A stretch of DNA of 64,000 bases, taken from NCBI GenBank assembly GCA_963736875.1, contig CAVTQH010000002.1, forward strand, positions 199,927-263,926, read 5' to 3'. Of the stretch, positions 19,225 to 60,837 are shown piece after piece. How positions within the stretch are numbered: position 1 is the stretch's first letter; each line of letters opens with the position of its first letter. The DNA is from Candidatus Amesbacteria bacterium. GTDB lineage: Bacteria; Patescibacteriota; Microgenomatia; CAZETR01; Amesbacteraceae. Under the pieces are notes generated by a model that saw only the letters and a program-made list of their open reading frames with translations, ran no database searches and had not been told where the DNA came from. A program made the translations under genes and the position numbers.

Positions 19225-19562
19225 GTAAAATATTTTACGATCATTTGGTTATCAGAGAGGAAATTGATTTCGAGCTTAACCGCTTTCAAATCGATCCCGA
19301 GGAGCAGGAAGAATTAATAAGTCTGATCGATCAGACTCTCCATCACCATATTTTAAACGTCATCTTAAATCACTTGCCCAAAGAAAAGCATACAGAGTTT
19401 ATTTCCCGGCTTCATGCCAAGCCGGATGATGATACCCTGATTGATTATTTAAAAACTCATGCCCACCCTGAAATTGAAGCCGAAATCAAAAAACAAGCCG
19501 CCAAGATCAAAAAAGAAATCCTGGCTGATCTCAAAAAATCCTCCCGCCGTACTAAATCTTAG
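19221..19562 (+). CDS. hypothetical protein, 113 aa, acidic/helical
   Basis: ORF only. Confidence 0.25.
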   Translation: MSKIFYDHLVIREEIDFELNRFQIDPEEQEELISLIDQTLHHHILNVILNHLPKEKHTEFISRLHAKPDDDTLIDYLKTHAHPEIEAEIKKQAAKIKKEILADLKKSSRRTKS

Positions 19563-21684
19563 CTTTTTTCAAAAGCAGGGAATTGGTAATCACCGAGACT
19601 GAAGATAATGCCATAATAAGTCCCGCCAGCTCCGGTTTGAGTATCAGTCCCCAAGGAGCCAACACTCCGGCGGCAATCGGAATTCCCAAAACGTTATAAA
19701 TCAGGGCAAAAAACAAATTTTCCCTGATTTTATTCATGGTTTTTCTGGACAAATTAATAGCCGCCGTGACATCACCGGGATCATTTTTAACCAATACCAC
19801 TTCCCCGCTTTCGATTGCCACATCGGTTCCCGATCCCATGGTAATTCCCAGATCGGCAGCAGCCAGTGCCGGCGCATCATTTATCCCGTCACCTACCATG
19901 GCCACGGTTTTGCCGGCTGCCTGAAGCTTCCTGATTTCCCCGGTTTTGTTTTCCGGTAATACTTCAGCTAACACGTTTTCTATTCCCAGCCCGGAAGCTA
20001 CTGCTCTGACCGTTTTCTCGTTGTCGCCGCTTAAAAGCCACACGTCCATACCCAGGCGTTTCAGCCTTTTAATCGCATTATTGCTTTCCGCTCTCACTTT
20101 ATCCGCAACTGCGATAAGTCCCAGCATCTTTTTATCTTTGGCCAGAATAACAGCGGTCTTGCCTTCATTTTCCCATTTTCCCGTCTCTTTCCCGGTGAAT
20201 TTAATATGATTTTCCGCCATCATTTTTTTGTTTCCCAGAAAATACTTTACCCCCCTGATCCTCCCCGTCACTCCCTGCCCGGGTATGGCTGTAAAATCGT
20301 CAACATCTTCAATTTTCAATCCGCCTGATTTGGCCTTTTCGTAAATACATTTAGCCACGGGATGTTCAGAATTTCGTTCCAGACTTCCCGCCAGCTCGTA
20401 ACACCTCCGGAGAGGAAATATCGGTTACTTCCAGTTTTCCCTCGGTTAAGGTTCCGGTTTTATCAAAAACCACGGTATCGATTTTTCCCGCTTTTTCCAA
20501 AGCTTCCCCGCCTTTAATTAAAATGCCGTGAGTAGCTCCCAATCCCGTCCCTACCATAATGGCCGTGGGGGTGGCCAGCCCCAAAGCACACGGGCAGGCG
20601 ATTACTATCACCGAAACCATTGCCAGGACGGCATATGTCAATGATGCCTGCAAAACCACATACCACACTCCGAATGTAACTAAGGCAACAATTAACACCG
20701 CCGGTACAAACCAGCCCGATACCCGGTCCGCCAGATTCTGGATCGGGGCTTTTGTCTCCTGGGCTTCTTCAATTAATTTGCTGATTCGCGCTATTGTCGT
20801 TTGTTCTCCCACTCTGGTCACTCTGATTTCAATTACCCCCATCTGATTTATCGTTCCTCCGGACAACTTTGTCTCCCTCTTTTTTATCAACAGGCAGGCT
20901 TTCACCTGAAAGCATCGACTCGTTTACCGCCGTCTGTCCCCGGATTATTTCCCCGTCAATGGGGATTGTTTGCCCGGGCCTGACCAAAACCATATCCCCG
21001 ATTTTTAATTTTTCCGTTTCCGTCTCGGTTTCCTGACCGTTTCTGATCACAGTGGCGGTTTTAGGCTGAAGCTGCCCCAATTTCCTGATTGCCTCCGAGG
21101 TTTTTCCTTTGGCCCTGGCTTCCAGCCATTTGCCCAAAAGCACAAAAGTGATTAATAAAGCCGAAGTTTCAAAATAGGTAGCCTCTTTCCCCCAAATTAA
21201 ATTTATGACGCTGAATCCGTAGGCTACCGACGTGCCGATGGCGATTAGTGAATCCATATTAAAAGACTTTGACCGCAAGTGCCGACCATGCCCCCCGGTA
21301 AAATCTTCTGCCCAAAATAAACTGTACGGGAGTGGCCAGGATCCACCCCAAAAAAGGCGGAAGCATCATAATCGGTGCGGACAATATTCCCGCCCAAATA
21401 AATCTTTTTTTATACTCCCGTATTTCCGTTTCCTTCCCTATTTCTCTTTCAGCGCCGCTCCCCGCGATTTCAATTTTTGCCCCGTATCCCGCTTTTTCCA
21501 CCGCTTCCACCAGCTGTCCGGCCAAAACTTGGTTTTCGGCAATCACTCTGGCCTTTTCCGTCGCATAATTTACGTTTGCTTCCGTCACTCCGGGGATTTT
21601 TCTCAGACTTCTTTGAATCAAAAGTGCACATGATGTGCAGTCCATGCCCGTGATTTCCAGATTTACCTGCTTTTTCCCAGTCAT
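19552..21684 (-). pseudogene. copA: copper-translocating P1B-type ATPase CopA, split into four ORFs by three frameshifts
   Basis: The pieces are 21259-21684 (HMA GMDCTSCA plus TM1-2), 20829-21278 (A domain), 20366-20905 (CPC, DKTGTLT) and 19552-20358 (GDGINDAP, C-terminal TMs). Each junction needs a 1-nt shift: ...ALAVK|SFNMD, ...DKV|SGGTINQ and ...EVTD...|ELAGSLERNSEHP. Confidence 0.7.
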
Positions 21685-21950
21685 TTTTCTTCAAACACCT
21701 TCATTACTTCGGCAATCGCCCTGTCGCGCTCTTCGGGCGTTCCCTTGACGGAGTCGGCGACACAGGTCTTGAGGTGGTTTTCCAAAATCAAGGCATCCAC
21801 TTTTTTCAAAGCCGCCTGTACGGCCTGGGACTGAGTGAGAATATCGATGCAGTAATCACCTTTTTCCACCATCTCAATCACTCTCTCCAAATGTCCTCTT
21901 ACAATTTTTAACCGGTGTTCCACACCTCCTCTGCTATCCGTGGTCCTCAT
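21681..21950 (-). CDS. csoR: CsoR/RcnR-family metal-sensing repressor (copper-sensitive operon repressor)
   Basis: An 89-aa DUF156 fold carrying the C-H-C ligand set (YCIDIL..., HLKTC). It sits immediately upstream of the copA remnant with a 4-nt overlap. Confidence 0.7.
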   Translation of the reverse strand: MRTTDSRGGVEHRLKIVRGHLERVIEMVEKGDYCIDILTQSQAVQAALKKVDALILENHLKTCVADSVKGTPEERDRAIAEVMKVFEEK

Positions 21951-24476: not shown

Positions 24477-25054
24477 TCTTTGATTATTACTGGTTTTTGA
24501 AGCAGAGTTTATAATCACAAACAATGGTGGACAAGCACCCCAGGGTGTATCGAGGCAGCGAGCGGCATATTTAGACGATCTTTATAAAAAGGCGATAAAT
24601 GGAGATTTTGAGCGGGAGGAGAGTTATCCAAAATTGCCGGGTGGATTTCCCTGGCCAGGGAGTTGGTCATAAAAATGGATAAGTGCTACCGGATCTGTCA
24701 GCGTAAAACCGGTCACCGATTTAAGGCAACAGGTTGAATTTAAAAGAGACAATATTTTACATTATGCATCCGCTGCCGCTGTCGGGCTAGATTACGGCAA
24801 ATCGGAGTAGCTGCTGAATGGGAAATGCCGCCTGCCGGTTCTACAATCGAGGAATTTCCCGTAATGCCTGTTTCCGAAGCAGCCGCGTTAATACACACTG
24901 CCCGGCAATTAAATAAAAGAGGCGGCGGAGTTCGGTTGGAAGATTGGTCGCACGCCGATCAGGAAAGGTTGTTAAGGGGAGAGAAACCCAAAGGAGTTCC
25001 GACACATAGAATTTATAGCGAGGCGGTCGGAAATGCTAGTATTTATATTGTCGC

Positions 25055-27475
25055 ATGGTTAAAAAAACACCCGCCCGGACCAACGAACTGAAGCTTTCCC
25101 GTGTATCTGCCTGGGCAGTGTTACTGCGCCAGCTGAAAAATCCGCTTTTATACATTCTTCTGGTTACCACCACTGTCGCTTTTCTTTTCGGTTCGCGTTT
25201 TTCTGCCCTGGTGGTTACCTGGATGATGTTTTTATCCGTTTTCCTGGGATTTTGGAACGAATTCCGGGCGGAGAAAACCATGGAGGATCTGTTAAAAAGG
25301 ATTTCCTTTACGGCTACGGTAATCAGAAACGGGACCAAACTAAGTCTTCCGGTTAAAGATATCCGGGTGGGGGATCATGTTCTGCTGTACCAGGGGGCGG
25401 TTGTTCCCGCGGACTTAAAGCTTCAAGAGGAGAAAGGATTGGAAGTCGATGAAGCGGTGATTACCGGTGAATCGGCTCCGGTTCATAAAAGCCGCGAAGA
25501 CGGACAGGTGTATATGGGAACAACTGTAGTTTCCGGAGAAGGCAGGGGGATTGTCACGGCCATCGGCACCGATACCAGATTCGGGGAAATCAGTGCCAGT
25601 GTGGCTTCAGTCCGGCCGGAAACTGAATTTCAGAAAGGTCTTAAATCCTTTGGTGTCCTGTTGGTTTGGGTTATCTCAACCATGGCTCTGGTGATTTTTG
25701 TTGTCAACTGGCTGTTGGGCAGATCCTGGATAGACTCCGCCCTTTTTGCTTTAGCGGTGGCTATCGGATTGACTCCGGAACTATTGCCTGTGGTGGTCAC
25801 CGTCAGTTTGTCCCATGGCGCCCGGCGTCTGGCCAAAAAAGACATTATTGTCAAGCAGCTGGTAGCCATTGAGGACCTGGGAAATATGGAGGTCCTCTGC
25901 TGTGACAAAACCGGCACTCTGACCGAGGGTAAACTGCAGTTGGTTTCCCACCAGAATCCCGAAGGGAAGGATAATCTGCGTGTTTTAGAGCTGGCTCTTA
26001 TCTGTAACTCCGCCGTTGTCCATCATAAAATTTTCGGTGATGCCATCGATTCAGCCATCTGGCAGCATGCCCAAAATCAGCGGATCAGACTTCCGGGAAA
26101 AATTACCAAAGTTCTGGAAATGCCCTTTGACTACGAACACCGGGCAATGTTTACTGTTGTCGAAGAAAATCACGACCGTACCTACATTTATAAAGGGGCT
26201 CCGGACGCGGTGATCGAAGCCAGCGCCGGTGACAAAAAAACCATTGCCGCACTTCATGCCAAAGTGGACAATTGGTATTCGTCAGGTTACAGGGTAATAG
26301 GAATTGCCACCAAACATGTTACCGCCTCCGAGCGTTACACTTTCTCCGACGCCCATCATTTGAAACTGGAAGGTTTTATTCTCTTTTCCGATCCGCCCAA
26401 ACCCGGGGTCAGAGCCGCCCTGGACCATTTTGAAAATTTAGGGGTGAAGCTGAAAGTGGTTACCGGTGACAATGAATTTGTCACCCGTAAAATCTGTCAG
26501 GAAATCGATTTAAAATGCGACAAAATTCTTACCGGACCGGAAGTGTCCCAAATGACCGAATCCGAATTAATCGATGTGGTCTGGCAGACGGACGTTTTTG
26601 CCCGTATGACGCCGGACAAAAAACTCCGGGTGATCAGGGCCTTGAAGCACGGTAACCATACGGTTGCTTACATCGGTGACGGTATTAATGACGCTCCGGC
26701 GCTTCACGAAGCCGATGCCGGCATATCGGTCGAAACCGCTGTTGATGTGGCCAAAGATACGGCCTCCATCGTTCTGATGCGCAAAAGTCTGAATGTGATT
26801 GTTGAAGGTGTGGCTGAAGGCCGCCGCACTTTTGTCAATACCCTCAAATATATTTTGATGGGTACCAGCAGCAATTTCGGGAATATGTTTTCCATGGCCG
26901 GGGCTTCCTTTATACTGCCGTTTCTTCCCATGACACCATCCCAGATTCTTCTGACCAATGCCATGTACGATGTTTCCCAGTTAAGCATCCCGACCGACAA
27001 TGTTGACCCGGAAGAACTTCATCAGCCCAAAAAATGGGATATCGGCATTATCCGCCGTTATATGGTCTTTTTCGGTCCGATCAGTTCCCTGTATGATTTT
27101 ATGACCTTCGGGGTAATGTATTTTCTGTTCCATGCCCGAGGCAGCCTCTTTCAGACCGGCTGGTTTATAGAATCACTGGCCACACAAATCATGGTGATTT
27201 TTATTATCCGTACCAACCGTATACCCTTTTATAAAAGCCGTCCCGGGTTAATTCTGACAGTTGCCAGTCTGGGAGCGGTTTTTGTTGCCATGTGTCTGCC
27301 GTTTTCCCCTCTTTCCCGTTTTTTTGAATTTTCACCTCTGCCCCCGCTTTACTTCCTGATCCTGGTTCTCATGGTTCTTACGTATCTCGTATTGGTTGAA
27401 GTGGGTAAAAAATTTCTTCTCCGCCGGGCTCTTACCCCTGCTGCCCCGGCTAAACTATTAAAGCCGCAGACTTAA
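25055..27475 (+). CDS. mgtA: Mg2+-importing P-type ATPase (MgtA/MgtB type)
   Basis: LLRQLKNPLLYILL, CCDKTGTLTEG, VTGDNEFV, GDGINDAPALHEADAGISV and a 10-TM layout. It is preceded by a ~580-bp non-coding leader. Confidence 0.7.
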   Translation: MVKKTPARTNELKLSRVSAWAVLLRQLKNPLLYILLVTTTVAFLFGSRFSALVVTWMMFLSVFLGFWNEFRAEKTMEDLLKRISFTATVIRNGTKLSLPVKDIRVGDHVLLYQGAVVPADLKLQEEKGLEVDEAVITGESAPVHKSREDGQVYMGTTVVSGEGRGIVTAIGTDTRFGEISASVASVRPETEFQKGLKSFGVLLVWVISTMALVIFVVNWLLGRSWIDSALFALAVAIGLTPELLPVVVTVSLSHGARRLAKKDIIVKQLVAIEDLGNMEVLCCDKTGTLTEGKLQLVSHQNPEGKDNLRVLELALICNSAVVHHKIFGDAIDSAIWQHAQNQRIRLPGKITKVLEMPFDYEHRAMFTVVEENHDRTYIYKGAPDAVIEASAGDKKTIAALHAKVDNWYSSGYRVIGIATKHVTASERYTFSDAHHLKLEGFILFSDPPKPGVRAALDHFENLGVKLKVVTGDNEFVTRKICQEIDLKCDKILTGPEVSQMTESELIDVVWQTDVFARMTPDKKLRVIRALKHGNHTVAYIGDGINDAPALHEADAGISVETAVDVAKDTASIVLMRKSLNVIVEGVAEGRRTFVNTLKYILMGTSSNFGNMFSMAGASFILPFLPMTPSQILLTNAMYDVSQLSIPTDNVDPEELHQPKKWDIGIIRRYMVFFGPISSLYDFMTFGVMYFLFHARGSLFQTGWFIESLATQIMVIFIIRTNRIPFYKSRPGLILTVASLGAVFVAMCLPFSPLSRFFEFSPLPPLYFLILVLMVLTYLVLVEVGKKFLLRRALTPAAPAKLLKPQT

Positions 27476-30637: not shown

Positions 30638-33154
30638 ATGTCTCTGACTGCCACCATCGCATCTCTTTCCGGTTTATCGGGTACCGAAGCCCAAAATCGT
30701 CTGAAAAAGGAAGGTTACAACGAACTCCCTTCCCAAAAAAGCCACTCCTGGCTGGATATTTTGTTAAGCGTTTTCAAAGAACCCATGATTTTTCTTTTGG
30801 TGTTTACGGGTCTGATATATCTGTTTTTGGGTGAAGTCCCGGATGCATTAATGCTTCTGGGCGGGATTTTTATCGTCATCGGCATCACTTTTTTTCAGGA
30901 GCGCAAAACCGAGCGGGCTCTGGACGCTTTAAAAAATTTAAGCAGTCCCCGGGCTTTGGTTTTAAGAGACGGTCAGGAAATGCGGATTCCCGGCCGGGAA
31001 GTGGTGCGCGAAGATCTGATAGCCCTTCAGGAAGGGGACCGCATTCCCGCCGACGGTACCGTTCTTTCCTCCACCAACTTAAGCATTGATGAATCTCTTC
31101 TGACCGGTGAATCCCTGCCGGTTCGAAAAATAGACTGGAATAATCAGGCGGATTCAGTCCGGCCCGGAGGGGAAAACCTCCCCTATGTTTTTTCCGGGAC
31201 TTTGGTTACTCAGGGAAGGGCAATAGTCCGGGTTACCGCCACCGGTATCAAAACTGAAATGGGAAAAATCGGCAAATCACTGGAAACAATTCATGAAGAA
31301 GACACCCTGATTAAAAAAGAAACAGGCCAAATTATTAAAAAGTTTGCTTTAGCCGGACTGATTTTATGTCTGACGGTAGTAATTCTTTTCGGTTTAATCC
31401 GGGGTGACTGGATTCAGGGCTTGTTATCAGGTCTGACTTTATCCATCTCCATGCTGCCGGAAGAATTCGCGGTTATTCTGGTGGTATTTCTTACTCTCGG
31501 AGCCTGGCGTATGTCCAAATACCAGGTGCTTACCCGAAACACTGCTACCATCGAGACTTTAGGGGCAGCCACGGCTCTTTGTGTGGACAAAACCGGCACC
31601 ATCACCTTAAATCAGATTACTCTCGACGGATTATTAACCGACGGTGACTATTTTCCCTTTCCGCAATCCGACGGTCATATCCCCGACAAATTTCACTCTT
31701 TGCTTGATTATGCCATCCTTGCCAGCCAGCAGGATCCTTTCGATCCCCTGGAAAAAGCCATCAGAAAGGCCGGAAAGCAAATTCTTACTGAGTCGGAGCA
31801 CGACCATCACAATTGGAGACTGGTCCAGGAATATCCCCTGTCCCAAAAATTAATGTCTTTGTCCCACGTCTGGCAATCACCGGACTCAAAGCACTTTGTC
31901 GTTGCCGCCAAAGGGGCTCCGGAAGCAATTGCCGGGCTTTGCCGCCTGACCGGGGACGAGAAAGCCCGTCTGGAATCGCAAATTGACCGGCTGGCAAACA
32001 GGGGTTTGCGTTTAATCGGGGTTGCCAAAGCCTCCTTTCCCGGGGAAAAACTGCCGTCAAAACAGCAGGACTTTAACTTTGAATTTTTAGGCCTGATGGC
32101 CTTTACCGATCCTGTCAGGCCGGGAGTGGCGGCAGCTGTCCGGGAATGTTATACGGCAGGCCTTAGGGTGATTATGATCACCGGGGATTATCCGGGAACG
32201 GCTCAATACGTGGCCGGTCAGATCGGACTTAAAAATCCCGACCAGGTGATTACCGGCGGTGAGTTATCCGAATTATCACAGGAGGCAATCAGGGAGAAAA
32301 TAAAGACAACCAATATTTTCGCCCGGGTGGTCCCCGAACAAAAGCTGATTATTATTGATGCCCTCAAAGCAAATGGTGAAATTGTGGCCATGACCGGGGA
32401 CGGGGTTAATGATGCTCCGGCTCTCAAGGCAGCTCATATCGGCATTGCCATGGGTAAAAGGGGTACGGATGTAGCCCGGGAATCCTCGGATCTGGTTTTA
32501 TTGGATGACGATTTTTCCTCCATTGTGACGGCCGTCCGTACAGGCCGCCGGATTTTCGATAATCTCAAAAAGGCTGTTGTTTATATTTTTGCAGTCCATG
32601 CTCCCATCGCCGGAATTTCTTTACTGCCGATAATTTTTAACTGGCCGATGGTCCTTTTACCTGCCCATATCGCCTTTCTGGAACTGATCATCGATCCGGC
32701 CTGCTCCCTGGTTTTTGAATCGGAAGTGCCGGAATCTGACATTATGAGCCGTCCCCCGCGTCCTTTAAATTCCTCACTGTTTACCAAAAAAAGCATTATC
32801 ACCGGCTTGGTTCAGGGATTGAGTATTTTGATTTTTGTTTCTGCTGTTTATATTTATGCCATCACAAGCGGCCGCGGAGATACTTTCTCCAGGACCATCA
32901 CCTTTGCCACTTTGGTTTTTTCCAACCTGCTTTTGATTCTTACCAATCTCTCCTGGTCCCGGAATATTTTTAAGACTCTCATCGGCCGTAACCGGGCATT
33001 GTACTGGGTTCTGGGAATGGCCGCCTCGGGCTTGCTGATTATTCTCCGTTCCCCGGCTGTCAGCTCTCTCTTTCACTTTTCTCCCCTGACTGGAGTGACT
33101 TACTTCTGGCATTTGCCGCCGGACTTATCGGCGTCATTTGGTTCGAAGTTCTGA
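30638..33154 (+). CDS. cation-transporting P-type ATPase, P2 (Ca2+-ATPase-like)
   Basis: CVDKTGTITLNQ, MITGDYPGTA, MTGDGVNDAPALKAAHIGIAMG and a 10-TM topology. Confidence 0.75.
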   Translation: MSLTATIASLSGLSGTEAQNRLKKEGYNELPSQKSHSWLDILLSVFKEPMIFLLVFTGLIYLFLGEVPDALMLLGGIFIVIGITFFQERKTERALDALKNLSSPRALVLRDGQEMRIPGREVVREDLIALQEGDRIPADGTVLSSTNLSIDESLLTGESLPVRKIDWNNQADSVRPGGENLPYVFSGTLVTQGRAIVRVTATGIKTEMGKIGKSLETIHEEDTLIKKETGQIIKKFALAGLILCLTVVILFGLIRGDWIQGLLSGLTLSISMLPEEFAVILVVFLTLGAWRMSKYQVLTRNTATIETLGAATALCVDKTGTITLNQITLDGLLTDGDYFPFPQSDGHIPDKFHSLLDYAILASQQDPFDPLEKAIRKAGKQILTESEHDHHNWRLVQEYPLSQKLMSLSHVWQSPDSKHFVVAAKGAPEAIAGLCRLTGDEKARLESQIDRLANRGLRLIGVAKASFPGEKLPSKQQDFNFEFLGLMAFTDPVRPGVAAAVRECYTAGLRVIMITGDYPGTAQYVAGQIGLKNPDQVITGGELSELSQEAIREKIKTTNIFARVVPEQKLIIIDALKANGEIVAMTGDGVNDAPALKAAHIGIAMGKRGTDVARESSDLVLLDDDFSSIVTAVRTGRRIFDNLKKAVVYIFAVHAPIAGISLLPIIFNWPMVLLPAHIAFLELIIDPACSLVFESEVPESDIMSRPPRPLNSSLFTKKSIITGLVQGLSILIFVSAVYIYAITSGRGDTFSRTITFATLVFSNLLLILTNLSWSRNIFKTLIGRNRALYWVLGMAASGLLIILRSPAVSSLFHFSPLTGVTYFWHLPPDLSASFGSKF

Positions 33155-33181: not shown

Positions 33182-33721
33182 CTATTTCTTATACTTCAAA
33201 AGATTTTCCGTAATATCCACAAATTCAATCCCCTTGGGTACTTCAAATACGGTTTCATCCAATTGCCAGTGGGCACAATTTACTTCATTCTCACCGCTAA
33301 GTTTTGCATACGATCCAAGAATTGATTCGGCTGAAGTTGCAGATCCGGTTGCGGTCAGCTGATTCAATTCTATTTTCAGACCCCGGCCGAGTGACGTCCA
33401 GATATACGCCTGCTTACCGTCTGAAATTATATGGCTGACGGATGTATTTCCGTTGCTTCTTGTTTGAATATCCATCCTGAACCGGTTTTTGGAAATTAAT
33501 ATGTTTCCAAAACTGCCTTCATTTTGGGTCTCTTTAATGGTAGAGGTGCAGGTGACATCATCTCCGGATTTTAAAGCTTCTGACAATACCCCGCCCTTAA
33601 TTATCTCGTCCGGGGGTAACGTGTTTATTTTTGGCGGACTTGGTTTGGGCCAGGTGAGTATCAGAGCCAAAATTCCCGACAATATCACCCCGCCCACAAT
33701 TGACAATTTCTTTTTTTTCAT
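33182..33721 (-). CDS. secreted hypothetical protein (signal peptide, 179 aa)
   Basis: MKKKKLSIVGGVILSGILALILT signal anchor. No family recognised. Confidence 0.3.
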   Translation of the reverse strand: MKKKKLSIVGGVILSGILALILTWPKPSPPKINTLPPDEIIKGGVLSEALKSGDDVTCTSTIKETQNEGSFGNILISKNRFRMDIQTRSNGNTSVSHIISDGKQAYIWTSLGRGLKIELNQLTATGSATSAESILGSYAKLSGENEVNCAHWQLDETVFEVPKGIEFVDITENLLKYKK

Positions 33722-33749: not shown

Positions 33750-34589
33750 TCAAAGGCTGAATCCTTTTTTGGCAGTCATTACTAATACATGTCCCCATCG
33801 GGATTTGCGCCGGTGGTATTTAACGCTGTTTAATCCTAAAAAACCGGTTATTTCCCGGCCGTACGGAAAAAACCACCAGCCCGCTACCGGATTGTGGCAA
33901 TAAGTCACAATCCGTGTCACACCGGCTCGTTTGGCCAGATCCGCGAGTCTTCCGGCTGACAGGTCATCCTCAAAACCGAATGCCCATTTGTTCCGCCGGA
34001 TAAGTATCTGTTTGGCCACCATAAACGGAATATCCCCGGAGTTGGGAGCCGCGATTACCAATATTCCTCCCGGCTTGACCAGCCGCCACATGATTTTGAT
34101 CATCTCAATTTTCCTGTCATCGGAAAAATGTTCAATCACCCCGCCGTTCCAGACCACGTCAAAAAATTTCCCGGGAAATTTCATGGAAAATGCATCCCGG
34201 CAATAAAATTTCGCTTTCAGTTTTTTTAATTTGAAGTATTTTTTTTGGAAAGCCAATGCTTTCTTCGAGATATCTACCAGATACAACTCCGCTCCCAAGC
34301 CGGCCAGATATGCCGAGGCCATTCCTGTACCGCTTCCCACTTCCAGAATTTTCTTTCCCTTTAAATTTTTTCCCATCACCTCTTCCAATTCTTCAAAATG
34401 GGCAATATAGTCAGGATTTGCATCAGCCTCGGAAGAATAACTTTCAGCAACTTTATCCCATAATTTTTCGGATTGCATACACCGATTGTACCAGTAACCT
34501 AAAGTTTGATAAAAAATATCCCGGTAATATAACTGGTCCCTTTCAGTAATCGGTTTCCGGTCAATATCCCTCCGTGGCTGTTTTCCCAA
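33750..34589 (-). CDS. class I SAM-dependent methyltransferase
   Basis: Motif I ILEVGSGTGMASAYL and post-I LYLVDIS. The true start is probably the internal M at ~34481 (MQSEKLW...), because the track ORF overlaps the Memo fragment. Confidence 0.6.
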   Translation of the reverse strand: MGKQPRRDIDRKPITERDQLYYRDIFYQTLGYWYNRCMQSEKLWDKVAESYSSEADANPDYIAHFEELEEVMGKNLKGKKILEVGSGTGMASAYLAGLGAELYLVDISKKALAFQKKYFKLKKLKAKFYCRDAFSMKFPGKFFDVVWNGGVIEHFSDDRKIEMIKIMWRLVKPGGILVIAAPNSGDIPFMVAKQILIRRNKWAFGFEDDLSAGRLADLAKRAGVTRIVTYCHNPVAGWWFFPYGREITGFLGLNSVKYHRRKSRWGHVLVMTAKKGFSL

Positions 34590-34990
34590 AGTTCCCAGTC
34601 AGTAGTTCCCAGTTTCTCCATGATCATCATTACCGTGGCCATCGCCGCCGGCGAATCCAGGTGGTTATCGTCGAACTTATACAAATTCAGGTAATCAAAA
34701 TTCCTGATGGTATTTATGGTCTGACTGTCATACTTTTCAGCCGGTTCAGGCAAATTATTATGGGAAAAATCCACACTCGCCACATATAAAGTGTTCTCCG
34801 GCATGATCTTGATGATAGCTTCAGCCATCCGCTTCAGAGTCTCCGGGGTATAACCGGGAGCGGTTAATATCGGCACAAATTCAGACCCGGTAAAAGCCTG
34901 TTTTAAATATTTTATGGGAACATTCACTCCGTGTTCATCACCAACCAGTTTGTCATCAATTACCAGTTGGCGGGAACTGCTGATTTAAGC
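34499..34990 (-). pseudogene. MEMO1-family (AmmeMemoRadiSam protein B-like) C-terminal two-thirds; N-terminal part missing or decayed
   Basis: ...LVIDDKLVGDEHGVNVPIKYL..., YVASVDFSHNN (DxSH) and NSHGGIL align with the C-terminal half of the intact Memo domain encoded at 35294-36904. The reading frame closes with a TAA at ~34990 and no Memo N-terminal motifs lie upstream in frame. Confidence 0.4.
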
Positions 34991-35293
34991 TGCAATACCG
35001 ATTTCCGGGCGATCGGGTAGTCGGGACTGCTTTCGGCCGTGGTGAACGTCCCGCCCCGCATCCGGAAATGGTTAGGGGAAAAAACTACAATAAACCGGGG
35101 ATTCTGGTTAATTTTATTTTATTGACGGCTCTGATGATTAAATCTTTTGCCAATTCGTGATGGGGAAGCACCACACCGCTGATACTCTGCCGGTTGCCCG
35201 GGATAACTTTATCAACCCTCAGCTCCCTGATTCCCAGGAAAACTGTCACTATAACTAAAATTAAAATCTTTTTCCGCATGGATAATACCGGGT

Positions 35294-36904
35294 TTAAAAA
35301 ACCTGGGCTTGATAAATATAAATTTCGGTTTCGGGATCCTGATAGCAATTTTTGGAAAGCCCCGCTTTCTGACTGCAAAGCTCCCCTAAAAATTCTTCCA
35401 AGCTCCATCCGGTGTCGGTAGCGACCTGCGGCAGAAATGTTCCCGAGCGGTTTCCCGAAACGATTACCACCCCGTCTGTTCCTAACCTGATCTGCTTCCA
35501 GTCACCGATTTTTTGTCTGGGGGTCATCACGGAAATTTCCAAAGTAATTTGAGAAAGTTCGGAAGCCGTAACCGGAGTAAACCGGGGGTCATTAGAAGCC
35601 GCATCCGCGGTTTTTTGCTGAATTACTTTATAAAGGGGTTCGTTGGGTTCAAACTCGCCGATGCACCCCCTCAGATCCCCGTTTTTTCTCAAAGTCACAA
35701 AAGCTCCCAGGGGATCATTCAATTCCGGATTTCTGACCGTGATTTCCCCGGGTAATTTTTTATCAGTGACAAAATCAGAAAGCGTCAGACGGGCAATTTC
35801 CAGCGCTTCTTTTTTGGCTTCCGGGGAAATTTCAGAAACAGCAAACTTCACCGTTGCGCCGGTAAAACCTATGGCCGCGTATCCCACCACCCGGTTTTTA
35901 TCGGATGTTACATCCCCGCTGTTTTGGTATTTCAGAAGTTTCGGAGGATCAAGTTTTAAAAGCTGCGAAACTTCCAAGGCCACTCTCAAAGCCTGAAAAC
36001 CGCAGGCCGGCGTTTCCACCCCGGGTTGTCTGACTGCGGTATTTTCTGCCATTTTTTTTTCAAACTCCGCTCTGCCGGCGGTTAATATTGCCTCTATCGT
36101 TTTTCCGTCAACAAGTTTGGCGGTATTGTAATCCGGGTAGTGGGACAAATCCGTGCTCACAACCAGAAGCGTTTTCTCATCCGTGTTTTGGGCGATTCGA
36201 AAAGCCAGAGCCGAAATTAATTGATCCGACGGCGTGCTCACCAAAATCGGAACAATTTTAAAATTATTAAGCACTTTTTGCAGCCATATAATTTCAGTTT
36301 CCAGCGAATGTTCTTTTTCATGTACTGTGGTATCGGCAATAATTTTCTGATCAGGGCTGATTATTTTTTGGGCCAGGTCGGTATCAATTTCTGCATTACC
36401 CAAAGGGGTTTCCCACACGCCTCCGGCAAACACCGCTGCGTGGTCGAAGCGGTGTTGATGGCTGGATCCCAGAATAATCACCCTGCCGAAATCGCTTCCT
36501 GCAATTTGTGCATAAGCCTCTGCTGCCGCTCTCCCGGAATAATCCAGTCCGGCATGGGGGACAATCAGTATCCGGAAAGCGCTGTCAGCGGAAATCTTTC
36601 GGGCTTGGGCAAGAAGGTTTTCGAGTTTGTTATCCAGCTCTTTAGTGTCTTTCGGGTAAAAAGTTCCTGCTGCTGCCGGTTTCCGGACGGAATCGGCTCC
36701 GGAAGTGCCGGCACTTGCCTGATTGCCTCCCGGCGGATTCGGACTGCGCCAGGCCAAAATCCCGATTATCAAAACCATGCCCAGCGTTATCCCCAATGCG
36801 GTCAGGACGGGATTTCTGAAATTTATTTTCATTCTGACTGTATTATAATCATAGCCGGTGAAGAAAATTTTAATGGTATTTTTGATACTGATTCTTCTGG
36901 GCAT
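35294..36904 (-). CDS. membrane-anchored MEMO1-like + AMMECR1 fusion protein (AmmeMemoRadiSam proteins B+A fused)
   Basis: N-terminal TM; Memo motifs AGTFYP, VPHAGLDYSG, LGSSH and VSTDLSHY; C-terminal AMMECR1 (LRGCIGEFEP...). Confidence 0.65.
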   Translation of the reverse strand: MPRRISIKNTIKIFFTGYDYNTVRMKINFRNPVLTALGITLGMVLIIGILAWRSPNPPGGNQASAGTSGADSVRKPAAAGTFYPKDTKELDNKLENLLAQARKISADSAFRILIVPHAGLDYSGRAAAEAYAQIAGSDFGRVIILGSSHQHRFDHAAVFAGGVWETPLGNAEIDTDLAQKIISPDQKIIADTTVHEKEHSLETEIIWLQKVLNNFKIVPILVSTPSDQLISALAFRIAQNTDEKTLLVVSTDLSHYPDYNTAKLVDGKTIEAILTAGRAEFEKKMAENTAVRQPGVETPACGFQALRVALEVSQLLKLDPPKLLKYQNSGDVTSDKNRVVGYAAIGFTGATVKFAVSEISPEAKKEALEIARLTLSDFVTDKKLPGEITVRNPELNDPLGAFVTLRKNGDLRGCIGEFEPNEPLYKVIQQKTADAASNDPRFTPVTASELSQITLEISVMTPRQKIGDWKQIRLGTDGVVIVSGNRSGTFLPQVATDTGWSLEEFLGELCSQKAGLSKNCYQDPETEIYIYQAQVF

Positions 36905-37635: not shown

Positions 37636-38611
37636 ATGAAAAAATTTCTCATTTTTATCGGTTTGATTTTTATTTCGGTTATAACCCTGTTAATCTTGGG
37701 TCGACATTATTTTGGCCCGCCGGGTAAATCCGTGGAACAGCAGATTTTTACCGTTCCCGAAAAACAGCCGGATTTTAACCCGGTGCAAAGTCTTTCGGAT
37801 CAGGGTTTTATCAAAAATAAATCCGCTTTTTCATTTTTAAAAGAAAAGTTCACCCCGGGAAAAGAGGTTAAACCCGGCGGCTACTATCTTAAGTCAGAAT
37901 ATGTTTGCCTGGCAGGTTCTGGAAAAAATTACCGGCAAACCGGATTTGTTATGGCTTACCGTCTCCGGTTGCCCCCGGAAAGAACAGATCGGGGAAAAGC
38001 TGGCGGATCTTCTGGGATGGACTTCAAAGGAAGTAAAAGACTGGAATTCGCTTTATTCTGATTTTAAATCCGAGTATTTTGAAGGAGTTTATTACCCCGA
38101 CACATATTTGATTCCGGTTACGGAGTCAGCGGGTCAGATTGCCCGGCGTTTTATCGACCGTTTCAACACAAAATTTGCTCCCCTGGCTGACAAGTTTGTA
38201 GAGGCCAATATCAAATGGACGACCGGAGTAAAAATTGCCTCTCTGATCGCCCGCGAAGCCGCGGGAGACAGCGACATGCGCCTTATAGCCGGCATTATCT
38301 GGAACCGGCTGGACCAGGGGATGCGCCTGCAGATTGACGCCACCATGCAGTACACTCTGGGAAAACGCTCCGACGGCAGCTGGTGGGGACCCGTTGATTT
38401 GAGCCAAAAACAAAGCGATTCTCCCTACAATACCTATTTATATGAGGGTCTTCCCCCGACCCCCATCTGCAGCCCGGATATCAGGTATCTGGAAGCGGTC
38501 ATAAATCCCGAAAGTACCGATTGCCTCTACTATCTGCACGATTCCGGGGGTCAGATCCATTGTGCCAAAACTTATGCCGGCCACAAATCCAATATCAGTA
38601 AATACTTATAG
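37636..38611 (+). pseudogene. mltG: endolytic murein transglycosylase MltG (YceG-like), interrupted by an apparent 1-nt frameshift near 37895-37905
   Basis: The N-terminal TM plus FTVPEKQ...KPGGYYLKSEY runs in frame 1 (ORF 37636-38061). It continues as MFAWQVLEKITGKPDLLWL...EGVYYPDTYLI...IASLIAREA...SPYNTYLYEGLPPTPICSP in frame 2 (ORF 37901-38611). The junction is gaatatgtttgcc. Confidence 0.6.
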
Positions 38612-49629: not shown

Positions 49630-50009
49630 TTATATTATTCTTTCCAAATAGTCTGACTGATCAAACTTACCTGCGGTTAGATTGTCATTATCGATATAAA
49701 CCCATGATTTAATATAAATACCTTCAAACCTTACATTTTCTTCTACTCTATTGTAAGTCTTTGGGATTTTATTATAACCTTCACTCTTATCTAATGCGTT
49801 CAAAGCAACATCATTAATATCAAATAATAGTCCATATACCTTTGGAACACGAATTTGTAGTATCAATAGCTATATTAGCCTTACAGCGGTTATTTTAAAA
49901 AAAATTCCCAACCTTCTAGTATAGCTACTCCTAATAACCCGAAGTTATCTACACATCTAACCTTCATTTGATTTAAATCCATGTTTGAACCATAAGCAAA
50001 GTATTTCAT
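49630..50009 (-). pseudogene. AIG2/GGACT (gamma-glutamyl cyclotransferase-like) family gene, frameshifted at an A8/T8 homopolymer (~49888-49895)
   Basis: An N-terminal piece MKYFAYGSNMDLNQMKVRC... (start ~50009) and a C-terminal piece ...VYGLLFDINDVALNALDKSEGYNKIPKTYNRVEEN... (49630-49866) lie in different frames. Confidence 0.45.
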
Positions 50010-50096
50010 TTTCTGCCTACAAAATAACCCAGACGAAGTAGGAGGTAAAGGTATTTGTAGCTTTCATACTTGCTGGGCGTGAAACAATTGAAGAAG

Positions 50097-51818
50097 TTAT
50101 GTTAGTAGATTTTTTAGATTCATAACATACTGATCTTCAAATGAATAACTATACTTTTTAGCCAAACTCCAGAATGAATCTTTAATATCTTGCTCATTGC
50201 GAATCAATTTTCTAGCTTCTGATAAGGAGGTAATAATATTACCCCTTGCCCTTGATGCCACCCTACTCAAATTAGTTGGTATCGTTGTTCTTAGTTTCCA
50301 GCTTTTAACGTCCCATATTAAATTAATACATGAATCAAGGTGGGTTTCATATTCACCAAACAGATCCTCGACCGCAAATCCATCAGGTAGAGTAATTATA
50401 TAAAGGTTACTTTTGGAATTAGGTATTAAATATTTTTTAAATCCATTGCTTAATTGAGGATCACCAACGATATATTTACTATACACATCTTTTCCTTTAT
50501 CGCTATCAACAATAAAGTATGCCTTCTTTTGTACAAGATCGGGTATATTTAATAAAACATCTATTGTTCTAGTTATTTGAGCTACACCTTCAAAACAGTT
50601 GGTAATTTTAATACCAACCTGTTCGTAAACATCCTTTGTTTCAGCTCTTTTATCTTCAATAAATGTTAGTAATTTGTCCTGAGAGGTATAGAAATATACA
50701 TAAAAGTTAGAATCTCCCATTAATTTCCCAATTTCAACTACTTCCTCCTTTGTCCATAATTTCATCTTTTTGTTTTTAACAACCACATGCTCTTTTAATA
50801 GACACCACTCTATGTTATCACCCCCTAAATTACTTGAGGCTAATATTATTGGGGAGTGTGTAGAAACGACCATTTGGATGTTCTTCAGCCAAGCTTGTGA
50901 ATTAAGTTCTTGAGAGAACTTGACCATTAAATCACCATGGAGAAAGGATTCTGGTTCTTCCAACAACCATATTGGGTGATATTCTCCTCTGTGAAGTGAC
51001 CTATCACTATCAAGTAAATAATGTGTTTGATATAAGATGGTTGATTGAGCTCCCGTTCCATGTGAGGTAAGCTCAATTTCTGGAAGTGTTTGTTGCCCTT
51101 TAAAACTTATATCAGAGATTTCAACAATTTCTTTAATATTTTTAGGAAGGTCAAGAGCTGCTTCACTTCCAGGCCACATAGTTTGCAGGCTTTTAGTTAA
51201 TGAGGATGAAAGGTACGATCTGGCTTGTCTACGAAATTCCTCCCACTTTTTTTGTAACTCATTAATACCTATAGATAAATTTGGGTTTCTACCCCAATTC
51301 GCTAATAACCTTTGTCTTAATTTTTCTTGCGCATTCTTAAGTAGATCTCTACCTTCTTGGGGGTGAATGTATGTCACCCTTACGCTCATTAACAACTTTT
51401 TAACATCTGGGTCAATATCGTCGAATGAATCATAAACATAACCTAAAAAGGTATATGAAAACGAAACTTTCCTTGATGATGGTAAAAATGTGATTATTTT
51501 CTTAATATCCGCCTTCTTATTCTTGAACAACCTTATCAGGCGATTTCTTAAAACATTACTAGTTAATTCTTCTAAATTAAATGTTATTGAGATCTCAGCA
51601 TGGTTATACCCTGCCTTTTTTGCTAGGTAGGTGGTTCTGTTTAGAAAAGTTTCATCTTGATATAACGAATCGTTAAAAAAGAAGTTTAAAGCATTTAAAA
51701 TCGCCGTTTTCCCTGCATTATTTATCCCTATTAAATAAGTTCCTTGGGATAAATTTATTTGAGTCTTTGACCGAAAGCACTTAAAGTTTTCTATTTCAAG
51801 CGAATTAATTAAACTCAT
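50097..51818 (-). CDS. OLD-family-like ABC-type ATPase with C-terminal TOPRIM/DUF4435-like domain
   Basis: Walker A GINNAGKTAILNAL, signature-like SHGTGAQS, Walker B IWLLEEPESFLH, H-loop VVSTHSP. The C-terminus has FEG...(Glu) and FIVDSDKGKD (DxD) as in TOPRIM. Confidence 0.55.
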   Translation of the reverse strand: MSLINSLEIENFKCFRSKTQINLSQGTYLIGINNAGKTAILNALNFFFNDSLYQDETFLNRTTYLAKKAGYNHAEISITFNLEELTSNVLRNRLIRLFKNKKADIKKIITFLPSSRKVSFSYTFLGYVYDSFDDIDPDVKKLLMSVRVTYIHPQEGRDLLKNAQEKLRQRLLANWGRNPNLSIGINELQKKWEEFRRQARSYLSSSLTKSLQTMWPGSEAALDLPKNIKEIVEISDISFKGQQTLPEIELTSHGTGAQSTILYQTHYLLDSDRSLHRGEYHPIWLLEEPESFLHGDLMVKFSQELNSQAWLKNIQMVVSTHSPIILASSNLGGDNIEWCLLKEHVVVKNKKMKLWTKEEVVEIGKLMGDSNFYVYFYTSQDKLLTFIEDKRAETKDVYEQVGIKITNCFEGVAQITRTIDVLLNIPDLVQKKAYFIVDSDKGKDVYSKYIVGDPQLSNGFKKYLIPNSKSNLYIITLPDGFAVEDLFGEYETHLDSCINLIWDVKSWKLRTTIPTNLSRVASRARGNIITSLSEARKLIRNEQDIKDSFWSLAKKYSYSFEDQYVMNLKNLLT

Positions 51819-51870
51819 ATGTTTTTTAAATAGCGGTTATGGCCTTAAAATAGCCTTAAATTTCTTAATG

Positions 51871-52500
51871 TCAAGCTATTCTAGTACCAGTATTTACTCC
51901 GCCGTGGTGGGAGCAGGTACCAGAGCGATGTTGACTAAAACTATACGTACCATCACCACACTTTGCAGTTGCCCCCACCGGAGGAGAATTGTAATAAGTA
52001 GGTGACTGTACTTTGTTTCCGTCTACATTTATATAGTAATCTGGGCTAGATTGAGTTTGGGGAGCTATTGTTGGAACTGGTTTAAATGTTGGTCTTGGAG
52101 TCGGCTTAAGAGTGGGGGTCAATGTTGGTGTTGGAGTTGGAGCTACAGTTAGGACCGGGGAAATAATTTCACTGGCTGGACTCAAGATTTCTACTCCCCC
52201 AATTTGTCCCTCAACTTTCGGCGACTCTGTTTTTATTTGGATGTTTGATCGTGGAACAGTGGAAACGTCTACTGGGATTTTTGGACTTGACCAAAACGAT
52301 GTTGAAATCAACGCCAATAAACACAAAGCCGCGATCGACCCAATTTTTACTTTATGCTTCCAGTTATTTCTGAAAATGACATAAGCAAAGAAAAAAGGCC
52401 AGAAAATGATTGCCAAAAGTAGTTTCCACCAAGTTTTATACCAGGGTCGTGGGGCAGACACGTCCGATTGGACGGTCATTAGCCTGGATGTTAGTTCCAA
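51871..52500 (-). CDS. membrane protein with PT-rich linker and C-terminal DUF3761-like Cys domain
   Basis: TM; (PT)n linker; YINVDGNKV...ATAKCGDGTYSFSQHRSGTCSHHGGV. Confidence 0.4.
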   Translation of the reverse strand: MELTSRLMTVQSDVSAPRPWYKTWWKLLLAIIFWPFFFAYVIFRNNWKHKVKIGSIAALCLLALISTSFWSSPKIPVDVSTVPRSNIQIKTESPKVEGQIGGVEILSPASEIISPVLTVAPTPTPTLTPTLKPTPRPTFKPVPTIAPQTQSSPDYYINVDGNKVQSPTYYNSPPVGATAKCGDGTYSFSQHRSGTCSHHGGVNTGTRIA

Positions 52501-52554
52501 GATGACCTATAGTCAAGTTTTACCGGGCGTGATCACATTATTTTAGACGACTTT

Positions 52555-53010
52555 TCAAGGTTGTGTTTCATACATAGCAACCTCACATTTTTTAGCAGTA
52601 AGACTTGTGCCACCTCTTGAATATGGTAAATCATGATCGAAATGTAGGTTCTGATTTGACTTACATATTACACATTTTCCTTGATCTCTTTTCCAAACCT
52701 CCTTTTTTACTTCCGATGGGATTAGTCTAGTATGAGAAAGTTGTACTTTCTGAATATCTCCCGAGATAGATTGGTTACCTGATAGTTTTAAAATAAAACG
52801 GAATACATTTCTATTACTATTGTTTTTCACTGTGTAATCAATAAGTTCGAAGTATCCCTTTGATGACCAAACTCCATTCATTATTTTTTCATAAACTTTC
52901 ACAATCTCAGGGTTGGCATCTTTTTCCTTGTATCCTTTTACTGCACGAATAAATAATCCATTCTGTGTTAATTTCCCTGAAGGTAATATTTCTGGCTGAT
53001 CGTCTAATTT
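52555..53010 (-). CDS. HNH endonuclease (start codon uncertain)
   Basis: CVICKSNQNLHFDHDLPYSRGG is an HNH motif. The frame is open back to ~53010 with no ATG. The upstream 64-aa ORF 53032-53226 is in the same frame, separated by TAA and TGA. Confidence 0.55.
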   Translation of the reverse strand, partial: KLDDQPEILPSGKLTQNGLFIRAVKGYKEKDANPEIVKVYEKIMNGVWSSKGYFELIDYTVKNNSNRNVFRFILKLSGNQSISGDIQKVQLSHTRLIPSEVKKEVWKRDQGKCVICKSNQNLHFDHDLPYSRGGTSLTAKKCEVAMYETQP

Positions 53011-53428
53011 TGGATTATGTCATATGCTTTTTTAGATATATCGTGTCCTTCGTATTCTATCGGTAATTCCATCGGAATATATTTTATCTTTATATGGGGC
53101 ATTTGATCTTTGGGACATCAAAATTAAAGAGTAACGAGGATTTAGTCGGTAATTCATTCCTCGTTGAAGAGTTTGAACATTTTCTAAATCACACATTTCC
53201 CTGTAAGAAAATATTTGATCAAGCACAGGTCAATTCCTTTTTAAACATAATTTGTATTTATTGGCTATTTAATTTACACTCTCCCCAAAAGAAAGCAATT
53301 GATTTGGGTCGAAAATATTATTTCCTCTTATTGATTCGTCTATTTCTCTTATTTTTTTATAACCTAAGAATTTAATAGCCTCGTTTAATTTTAAACACGG
53401 ATTGGAAAACGTTGGCCTTTTTAGCTCA

Positions 53429-54382: not shown

Positions 54383-54384
54383 AT

Positions 54385-54855
54385 TTAAAGCTGATTATAC
54401 TTTGTGTGTTTACCCTTTGTCTTTTCAATAGGGTACCTTAGATTGTTCTTTGCTATTTTCTTATCAAGAGCTGCCAATATATCAATATTTAAATCATTAC
54501 TCATAAGTAATACCCAATACAACACGTCAGCTAATTCTTCGCCTATTTCATTTTTATGATTCTTAACATGTTCTTCGATCTCTTCTTTGTTCTTCCATTG
54601 GAAGTGTTCCATTACTTCTGCTGCTTCTAGAATCAGAGATAGAGATGCATCTTTAGGATTATGAAACTGCTTCCAATCCCTAGCATTCCGGAAATTGATA
54701 ATTCTCTGAGTTAAACTTTTTATTGTTTTCACTTTTAGCCTGATTTTACTCCTTTTTTCCCTTTTTTCGCGGATTTGATAGGATATAGATAGTGAAATTA
54801 ATAAGCGTACGGAAATTGGGATTTTATAAAAGCAAGTTCTTTGTCTTTTTCGCAT
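54385..54855 (-). CDS. MazG-like nucleotide pyrophosphohydrolase (all-alpha NTP-PPase, YpjD-like)
   Basis: RDWKQFHNPKDASLSLILEAAEVMEHFQWK...IGEELADVLYWVLLMSNDLNIDILAAL. The real start is probably ~54760. Confidence 0.55.
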   Translation of the reverse strand: MRKRQRTCFYKIPISVRLLISLSISYQIREKREKRSKIRLKVKTIKSLTQRIINFRNARDWKQFHNPKDASLSLILEAAEVMEHFQWKNKEEIEEHVKNHKNEIGEELADVLYWVLLMSNDLNIDILAALDKKIAKNNLRYPIEKTKGKHTKYNQL

Positions 54856-55436: not shown

Positions 55437-55444
55437 ACCTCAAA

Positions 55445-55496
55445 GCGTGAGCACGGATTTATGCCTGCCGAATTACAGTACTCTGTCATCCCGAAT
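55445..55496. repeat. copy 2 of the ~52-bp intergenic repeat
   Basis: gcgtgagcacggatttatgcctgccgaattacagtactctgtcatcccgaat: 30/30 then 18/22 identity with copy 3. It is followed by a CCGG-rich hairpin and a T-run. Confidence 0.6.
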
Positions 55497-55535
55497 CTGC
55501 GCGGTCCGGGCCGGTCCGGTGCCGGGAGTACTGAT

Positions 55536-60829: not shown

Positions 60830-60837
60830 ACTATTAA

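Follow-up and report, generated by a model that had tools for sequence, protein, structure and literature searches.

The fused Memo-AMMECR1 gene, its membrane anchor and its neighbours

The stretch of Candidatus Amesbacteria DNA analysed in this work (64 kb, referred to below as the window) carries on its minus strand, at 35294..36904, a fused gene that joins AmmeMemoRadiSam protein B (Memo) and protein A (AMMECR1) in one reading frame, with a longest ORF of 536 aa and matches in both Pfam and NCBIfam. The first-pass annotation of this DNA had described such a fused 536-aa polypeptide and had proposed HMM searches as a check of the two domain calls. Both halves scored above the cutoffs. The Memo domain spans residues 76-345 (35870..36679, minus strand) and matched PF01875 at 193.9 bits (cutoff 27; 4e-57) and TIGR04336 at 235.6 bits (cutoff 26; 6e-70), the latter over profile positions 1-268 of 270. 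The AMMECR1 domain spans residues 369-536 (35297..35800, minus strand) and matched PF01871 at 169.7 bits (5e-50) and TIGR04335 at 164.9 bits (cutoff 99; 1e-48) over profile positions 3-175 of 175. The protein is 100% identical to a 512-aa entry already present in NCBI/ENA (P0001), which differs from the window ORF in the choice of start codon alone (512 vs 536 aa). Because P0001 is 512 aa long and the N-termini of homologs align at Met25, the true start is probably Met25 at 36832, giving a product of 512 aa.

In a 26-sequence alignment the Memo half retains the residues of the invariant columns, H117, H149, H199, E202, D252, H255, and C301, which lie in the motifs PHAG and SSH (His), EHSLE (His and Glu), DLSH (Asp and His), and ACG (Cys). 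We take these to be putative metal-binding or active-site residues, which would map onto the ligands of human MEMO1. The AMMECR1 half carries an LRGCIG motif, and L411, G413, C414, and G416 are invariant in the same alignment. Since every family-invariant residue has been kept, the fused protein is presumably functional.

A single hydrophobic, transmembrane-like segment, VLTALGITLGMVLIIGILA, was located at residues 33-51 of the 536-aa ORF (36752..36808, minus strand; mean Kyte-Doolittle value of 2.54 over 19 residues), in agreement with the N-terminal transmembrane helix proposed earlier. A similar N-terminal segment was detected by hydropathy in 98 of 120 fusion homologs and can also be seen in the alignment. 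Lys and Arg residues were richer on the C-terminal flank of the helix in 71 homologs, with the opposite distribution in 16; the window protein itself is ambiguous in charge (two K/R before the helix and one after). From the concentration of K/R residues directly after the helix in CPR homologs, both domains probably sit on the cytoplasmic side of the membrane. Non-CPR homologs, however, carry lipoprotein-like signal peptides, which point to the periplasm and thus to the opposite placement. The N-termini of radical SAM partners from Bacteroidales gave only sub-threshold matches to Pfam TAT_signal (∼12 bits, E ∼0.2).

Downstream of the fusion lies a second, stand-alone Memo-like gene (Memo2, described below), followed on the minus strand by a gene for a SAM-dependent class I methyltransferase (33750..34478, 242 aa from ATG; Methyltransf_11 and Methyltransf_25 matches) that is 89% identical to its counterpart in locus L083 and is syntenic in L083 and L087. 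Next to it is a gene for a 179-aa protein (33182..33721, minus strand) whose N-terminus is hydrophobic and which matches no Pfam family; it has orthologs in L083 (82% identity) and L087. A P2-type cation-transporting ATPase of 838 aa is encoded on the plus strand at 30638..33154, convergent with the cluster; its assignment was based on Pfam-annotated orthologs and phmmer matches, and its neighbouring position is conserved in L083, L085, and L087. All five genes (fusion, Memo2, methyltransferase, ∼180-aa protein, and ATPase) form a conserved cluster in the window, L083, and L087; the contig of L085 is short and shows just the fusion beside the ATPase.

Memo2, a separate gene with two frame breaks

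Memo2 starts 14 nt downstream of the fusion on the same strand (34499..35279, minus strand). Three-frame translation and ortholog alignment indicated a full-length, stand-alone, anchored Memo-like gene of ∼260 codons that is spread over frames 0, then 2, then 1, with its own hydrophobic N-terminus and PHH, SPNHF, DEHG, and VDFSH motifs. The reconstructed protein matched PF01875 at 38.3 bits (cutoff 27). Two intact orthologs, P0126 (259 aa, 75% identity) and P0127 (256 aa, 72% identity), align with it over ∼256 aa. The first-pass annotation had reported only a C-terminal Memo fragment at this position; the gene turned out to be complete, with 260 codons and a helix of its own.

The earlier description of this element as a second, decayed Memo copy implies that the Memo half was duplicated in tandem and that the duplicate is now decaying. 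The position of Memo2 (14 nt downstream, same strand) and its match to the Memo HMM are what one would expect of such a duplicate. Memo2, however, shares only 18% identity with the fusion's Memo domain, against 72-75% with the intact 256-259-aa proteins of relatives, it possesses a separate N-terminal helix and distinct motifs (PHH; Ala in place of the Cys), the same gene pair is found in L083 with both members intact, and the clade of stand-alone anchored Memo proteins to which it belongs numbers 289 clusters matched at E<=1e-30. A tandem duplication remnant was ruled out by these identities and by the intact pair in L083, and we consider a decaying duplicate extremely improbable. Neither does the gene look decayed, having syntenic intact orthologs and two small indels only. 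We concluded that Memo2 is an ortholog of a separate clade of intact stand-alone Memo proteins, as judged from sequence comparison, and is not a copy derived from the fusion.

The members of this clade (P0126-P0130, including one from Candidatus Woesebacteria annotated as 'AmmeMemoRadiSam system protein B') resemble Memo2 in their PHH, NH, EH, and DFSH motifs, in having an N-terminal helix, and in their gene neighbourhood, and differ from it in that their frames are intact whereas the window copy is broken twice. The conserved Cys of canonical Memo proteins has been lost from the clade, where Ala or Ser takes its place, while the His and Asp residues have been kept. Within the closest relatives Memo2 is intact and lies in the same cluster. 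No further Memo gene accompanies the fusion in any of the 80 species-representative loci, and the two stand together only in a few close relatives; elsewhere, members of the Memo2 family occur in unrelated contexts, beside an alpha-2-macroglobulin-like gene.

The window has no uninterrupted Memo2 ORF. DNA alignment with the intact orthologs of L083 and L084 placed the first frame break, a 1-nt deletion, at ∼35115..35116 (minus strand) within AATAAAAT-AAAATT, and the second, a 2-nt insertion, at ∼34971..34972 (minus strand) in GTTCC[CG]CCAACTG. Stops occur at 35085-35087 and ∼34960. Programmed frameshifting was rejected; two sites of different kinds would be needed, and the orthologs have none. 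Two readings of the breaks are left, a very recent pseudogene and an indel artefact of the assembly, and we regard the two as about equally probable.

If both breaks are assembly or sequencing errors, the gene would be intact and expressed in the organism, a possibility that we place slightly below an even chance. Consistent with it, Memo2 keeps all clade-invariant residues (P39, H40, H71, D109, H117, D171, S173, and H174 in the alignment) and shows no accelerated divergence, its distance to outgroups (34.7 and 37.1%) being equal to that of the intact orthologs (∼36%). The first break is located within an A/T-rich low-complexity run. In addition, frame breaks affect at least three further genes of the 64 kb, namely a CopA-type ATPase in four pieces (19552-21684), MltG/YceG (∼37900-38060), and a second P-type ATPase, broken at its N-terminus (∼25055-25091); so many broken genes are unusual in a genome as streamlined as those of CPR, and MltG has a housekeeping role. 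The second break, however, is a 2-nt insertion outside a homopolymer, and many long genes in the window are intact (838, 806, 789, and 1106 aa). The breaks are also clustered, with at least three in CopA and two in the 0.78-kb Memo2, a pattern better explained by relaxed selection on individual genes than by random error. At several other places, overlapping ORFs proved to be distinct genes: the sets at 134-2542, 4152-5682, and 6548-8732 were considered as frameshifts and rejected, as they match different families. A scan of 57509-61271 for a frameshift gave no sign of a break. With several frame-broken genes in one window, no pseudogene should be interpreted until the indel quality of the assembly has been checked.

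Spread of the fusion and its radical SAM partner

The earlier annotation implied that the fusion is unusual, a view that the homolog searches contradicted. The protein homologs compared were the best 120 of 7,680 matches, and all 120 carry both PF01875 and PF01871 at 47-65% identity and a length of ∼500 aa; several of them (P0002, P0003, P0006) carry the JGI annotation 'AmmeMemoRadiSam system protein B/protein A'. Among contigs from one genome per species at least 596 matches were obtained, of which the best 80 are all fusions spanning residues ∼73-536, and the hosts of these 80 loci include CPR, Bacteroidales, Sulfurimonas, Anaerolineae, Latescibacteria, Desulfobulbaceae, and others. Fused B/A proteins of Microgenomates (OGD09727.1 from Candidatus Amesbacteria and MGB9706649.1 from a Microgenomates group bacterium) have the same layout of helix, Memo domain, short linker, and AMMECR1 domain, and such relatives share with the window protein all invariant residues and the length of ∼500 aa. 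On sequence grounds, the fused gene can be assigned as an ordinary member of a very large and already annotated family of anchored Memo-AMMECR1 proteins, found in CPR and beyond.

Among proteins of known structure, human MEMO1 (PDB 3BCZ and 7KQ8) is homologous to residues 74-257 of the fused protein (E ∼7e-16), and the archaeal AMMECR1 homolog PH0010 (PDB 1VAJ) matched residues 368-536 (E=5e-26). MEMO1, PH0010, and a further archaeal AMMECR1 homolog, MM0484 (1ZQ7), are separate soluble single-domain proteins, unlike the anchored fusion. We know of no established enzymatic reaction of MEMO1 or the archaeal AMMECR1 homologs that could be transferred to it. The classical AmmeMemoRadiSam system consists of three genes (TIGR04335 for A, TIGR04336 for B, and TIGR04337 for the radical SAM protein), whereas here A and B form one anchored polypeptide, whose two components score well above the curated cutoffs of the families of the classical system. 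The contexts of the three-gene system have reportedly been analysed by Burroughs and co-workers (2019, J Biol Chem 294:10211; cited in PMC7159879). Our literature search found no functional study of AmmeMemoRadiSam or of AMMECR1, Memo, and radical SAM together, and to our knowledge no member of the Memo/AMMECR1/radical SAM system has a known biochemical function.

The third component was searched for in the window by two methods. The radical SAM CX3CX2C motif was absent from all window ORFs of at least 100 aa, apart from a spurious 103-aa ORF, and an HMM built from eight verified TIGR04337 partners gave no match at E<=10 in the six-frame ORFs of at least 70 aa. No TIGR04337 gene is therefore found within 34 kb on one side and 27 kb on the other side of the fusion, and the earlier statement that the window holds no radical SAM gene was confirmed by both searches. 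In the 80 species-representative loci a TIGR04337 gene lies within 10 kb of the fusion in 32, and directly adjacent in eight. A verified TIGR04337 gene adjoins the fusion in L012, L027, L074, L004, L023, and L068, and is separated from it by 1.4 kb in L028 and by 2.2 kb in L033. Among CPR relatives both arrangements occur, direct adjacency and a distance of kilobases. Where the full 10-kb flanks were available, a TIGR04337 gene was nearby in 12 of the 24 loci; since the other half of these relatives are also unlinked, the absence of the partner from the window is not special. Among the best 120 matches listed, fusion and radical SAM matches from Microgenomates were linked in ten cases by contigs of the same length. 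In the seven loci with the closest fusions (56-65% identity: L001, L083, L085, L086, L087, L088, and L089), no TIGR04337 gene was present in the flanks seen.

Reading of the locus and its implications

We consider it very likely that the window carries a typical member of the fused B/A family whose radical SAM partner is located elsewhere, together with a gene of a separate clade, Memo2, that is broken by two small indels. The fusion would then probably have as its partner a TIGR04337 radical SAM enzyme whose gene lies at another site in the genome, and the substrate of the fusion is likely to be membrane-associated.

An alternative is that in an Amesbacteria-like subclade the fusion has become independent of radical SAM and instead forms, with Memo2, the methyltransferase, the small protein that looks secreted, and the P-type ATPase, a membrane module whose chemistry relates to metals or lipids. 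The conservation of the cluster in the window, L083, and L087 and the fusion-ATPase pair in L085 are in line with this idea, as is the lack of TIGR04337 in the flanks seen of the window and the seven closest-fusion loci. The source contig (441,639 bp) is also missing from the best 120 radical SAM matches, a listing that is uninformative on this point. The flanks seen, however, extend to 10 kb at most or belong to short contigs, and slightly more distant Microgenomates fusions (P0021, P0023, P0024, and P0032; 55-57% identity) share a contig with a radical SAM gene. Only a few close relatives have the cluster, whose gene order could simply have been inherited, the relatives of Memo2 elsewhere sit in unrelated contexts, and disruption of Memo2 would not be expected for an essential partner. 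We therefore regard independence from radical SAM as improbable. Slightly more doubtful still is the specific proposal that a small Microgenomates subclade possesses the fusion without any radical SAM enzyme and with the Cys-less Memo paralog, the methyltransferase, the small exported protein, and the P-type ATPase as a conserved membrane module; if true, this radical-SAM-free module would be a bacterial analogue of the eukaryotic Memo/AMMECR1 pair, which is also free of radical SAM.

Under the preferred reading, that of a typical fused B/A protein with its partner elsewhere, the discovery value of the locus is small; the fusion is a standard annotated architecture in thousands of genomes, and the exact protein is already public. 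The useful outcomes are corrective: the annotation of Memo2 should give it as a complete gene with frame breaks that belongs to a distinct clade of anchored Memo proteins, and caution is called for with indels in this assembly. For the biology of the family, the consistent targeting of the components of the system to the membrane or for export may offer a better lead than the fusion itself.

Domain structure and distribution of the Memo-AMMECR1 fusion

The minus-strand interval 34499..36904 holds two genes, not a gene and a fragment. The larger is a 536-aa ORF (35294..36904, minus strand; ORF call, Pfam and NCBIfam), in which residues 76-345 match Memo (4e-57) and residues 369-536 match AMMECR1 (5e-50) in Pfam. 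Against NCBIfam it scored 235.6 bits for TIGR04336, 'AmmeMemoRadiSam system protein B' (cutoff 26), and 164.9 bits for TIGR04335, 'protein A' (cutoff 99). Both HMM sets thus confirm the first-pass annotation that Memo and AMMECR1 are fused in one 536-aa polypeptide, and the N-terminal transmembrane helix it described was found as a single hydrophobic segment, VLTALGITLGMVLIIGILA, ahead of the Memo domain. A start at 36832 (Met25) appears likelier than the 536-aa ORF start, because an exact database copy, P0001 (512 aa; NCBI/ENA, 441,639-bp contig), begins at Met25 and the N-termini of homologs also line up there. The fusion holds every invariant residue of a 26-sequence alignment: H117, H149, H199/E202, D252/H255 and C301 in the Memo half, and L411, G413, C414 and G416 in the AMMECR1 half. 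The closest solved structures are human MEMO1 (3BCZ/7KQ8, about 7e-16) and the archaeal AMMECR1 homolog PH0010 (1VAJ, 5e-26). On every sequence-level test the fusion scored as AmmeMemoRadiSam proteins B and A and as a member of the anchored fused subfamily.

A search of 5.8 billion proteins gave 7,680 matches, and the best 120 were inspected. All 120 carry both PF01875 and PF01871 (47-65% identity, about 450-535 aa); many are already named by JGI 'AmmeMemoRadiSam system protein B/AmmeMemoRadiSam system protein A', and those listed under an organism name belong to Candidatus Amesbacteria and the Microgenomates group. A one-genome-per-species scan yielded at least 596 confirmed matches, the best 80 of which all span residues ~73-536 within one ORF; their hosts include CPR/Patescibacteria, Bacteroidales, Sulfurimonas, Anaerolineae, Latescibacteria, Desulfobulbaceae and others. 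With the two-domain form in every one of these best proteins and loci, we concluded that the fusion is an ordinary, already annotated architecture and not the unusual one that had been implied.

Membrane anchor and radical SAM partner

A similar N-terminal hydrophobic segment occurs in 98 of 120 homologs; the anchor is a trait of the fusion family, not special to the window gene. Among these 98, K/R residues are richer C-terminal to the segment in 71 and N-terminal to it in 16, and the window fusion is ambiguous (2 K/R before, 1 after). By the positive-inside rule, the K/R bias in homologs suggests that the anchor holds the catalytic domains on the cytoplasmic side of the membrane.

The first-pass annotation saw no radical SAM gene in the window, and we agree. 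The CX3CX2C motif was absent from window ORFs of at least 100 aa, save one spurious 103-aa ORF, and an HMM of the radical SAM enzyme TIGR04337, built from enzymes verified beside fusion genes in eight relatives, had no match in the window at E<=10. At the system level, then, a linked radical SAM enzyme was not found within the 64 kb. The same HMM detected a partner in 32 of 80 fusion loci, immediately adjacent in eight. Where full 10-kb flanks were present on both sides (n = 24 loci), the partner was found in 12 and absent in 12. Ten further co-occurrences in Microgenomates were read from fusion and radical SAM matches on contigs of equal length. The fused form thus still normally accompanies a radical SAM enzyme, loosely linked, and because the linkage is loose, its absence from 64 kb is unremarkable. 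None of the best 120 radical SAM matches lies on a contig of 441,639 bp, the length of the P0001 contig, which is uninformative about the rest of the genome. Since the seven loci with the closest fusions (L001, L083, L085-L089) also have no TIGR04337 partner in the flanks available, there is a small chance that these and the window gene form a subclade free of the enzyme.

The CPR partners near fusions have a transmembrane-like helix at the N-terminus, with K/R residues after it (L004:1599-2795, L006:1-1209, L009:235-1386, L017:6486-7601), and both components appear membrane-tethered in these bacteria. The fused B/A proteins of Bacteroidales and other non-CPR relatives (L033, L039, L043, L046-L050, L052, L054, L055, L062, L063, L069, L072, L079) open with lipoprotein-like signal peptides (e.g., ...FACNSQ, ...LSCRGE). 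Their TIGR04337 partners, about 2.2 kb off, share an N-terminal [ST]-K-R-[DE]-F-L-K and a hydrophobic stretch, a motif that is Tat-like but with KR, not RR; Pfam TAT_signal matched these N-termini below threshold only (about 12 bits). The whole system might be exported in non-CPR bacteria; for a radical SAM enzyme, export would be surprising.

Memo2 and the frame breaks

The second gene, Memo2 (minus strand, 35279 to 34499), has its ATG 14 nt past the fusion's stop codon and runs through frames 0, 2 and 1. It had been taken for a decayed C-terminal fragment paralogous to the fusion's Memo. Rebuilt, it is a full 260-aa gene above threshold for Pfam Memo, with its own hydrophobic N-terminus followed by PHH, SPNHF, DEHG and VDFSH motifs; it shares just 18% identity with the Memo domain of the fusion but, along its full length, 75% with P0126 (259 aa) and 72% with P0127 (256 aa), both intact. 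Run against 1.84 billion representatives, a Memo2-clade profile matched 289 clusters at E<=1e-30, most of them 250-320 aa long; clade members retain the His/Asp positions, and the conserved Cys of canonical Memo is replaced by Ala or Ser. DNA alignment with two relatives' loci (L083, L084) showed that the window gene lacks 1 nt at about 35115/35116 and has 2 nt inserted at about 34971-34972. The window copy holds all clade-invariant residues and is as close to outgroup members (34.7/37.1%) as intact orthologs are (about 36%). By these sequence measures, Memo2 has lost its frame and nothing else.

Other window genes are broken too. An intact metal-sensitive repressor of the CsoR/RcnR type (PF02583) is followed directly by a CopA-type heavy-metal P-type ATPase (19552..21684, within 19552-21950, minus strand) that is spread over four ORFs in differing frames (HMA; E1-E2 profile positions 2-71; E1-E2 64-180; hydrolase 44-191). 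This ATPase is probably either a pseudogene or poorly assembled sequence. One frame break each is apparent in MltG/YceG (37636..38611, plus strand; a 236-aa ORF covers profile positions 54-275, with the N-terminal helix in another frame) and in a second, P2-type ATPase (24825..27475, plus strand; the 806-aa ORF begins at Cation_ATPase_N position 36). Together with Memo2, these suggest either a raised indel rate in the assembly or several recent pseudogenes. For Memo2 itself we rate the two about evenly: breakage of MltG, a housekeeping gene, speaks for assembly errors and against real, recent inactivation, but the clustering of breaks (at least 3 in CopA, 2 in Memo2), the many intact long genes in the window and the non-homopolymer 2-nt insertion speak the other way.

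Genomic context and the known system

In the close relative L083, the fusion is followed by an intact Memo2 and then by a uracil-DNA glycosylase family gene (L083:1305-2006), the methyltransferase, a 180-aa protein and the P-type ATPase; in the window, Memo2 and the methyltransferase are separated by just 20 nt (34478-34499). L087 has the L083 gene set slightly rearranged, and in L085 the ATPase adjoins the fusion. Memo contexts are reportedly tied to nucleotide-base and isoprenoid modification. More distant Memo2-clade members (P0130, P0129; about 36% identity) come immediately after a 1,736-aa alpha-2-macroglobulin-like gene on two different Microgenomates contigs (L081/L082:4783-10807; L090:4733-10747), a recurring association without obvious explanation. 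Elsewhere in the window, a low-GC island at ~50000-55500 (0.34-0.39 vs. about 0.47 in the remainder) resembles a defence or mobile island gained by horizontal transfer; its products are an AAA_15/AAA_21 (OLD/AbiEii-like) ATPase, a DUF3761 protein, a MazG-like pyrophosphatase and a NERD nuclease-related protein.

A literature search found no functional study of the AmmeMemoRadiSam system; the sole comparative analysis traced is that of Burroughs et al. (2019), as cited in PMC7159879. Because the fusion is ordinary and Memo2 is a separate gene, the first-pass finding is an accurate account of a known architecture, already carried in existing annotations, with a mis-described neighbour.
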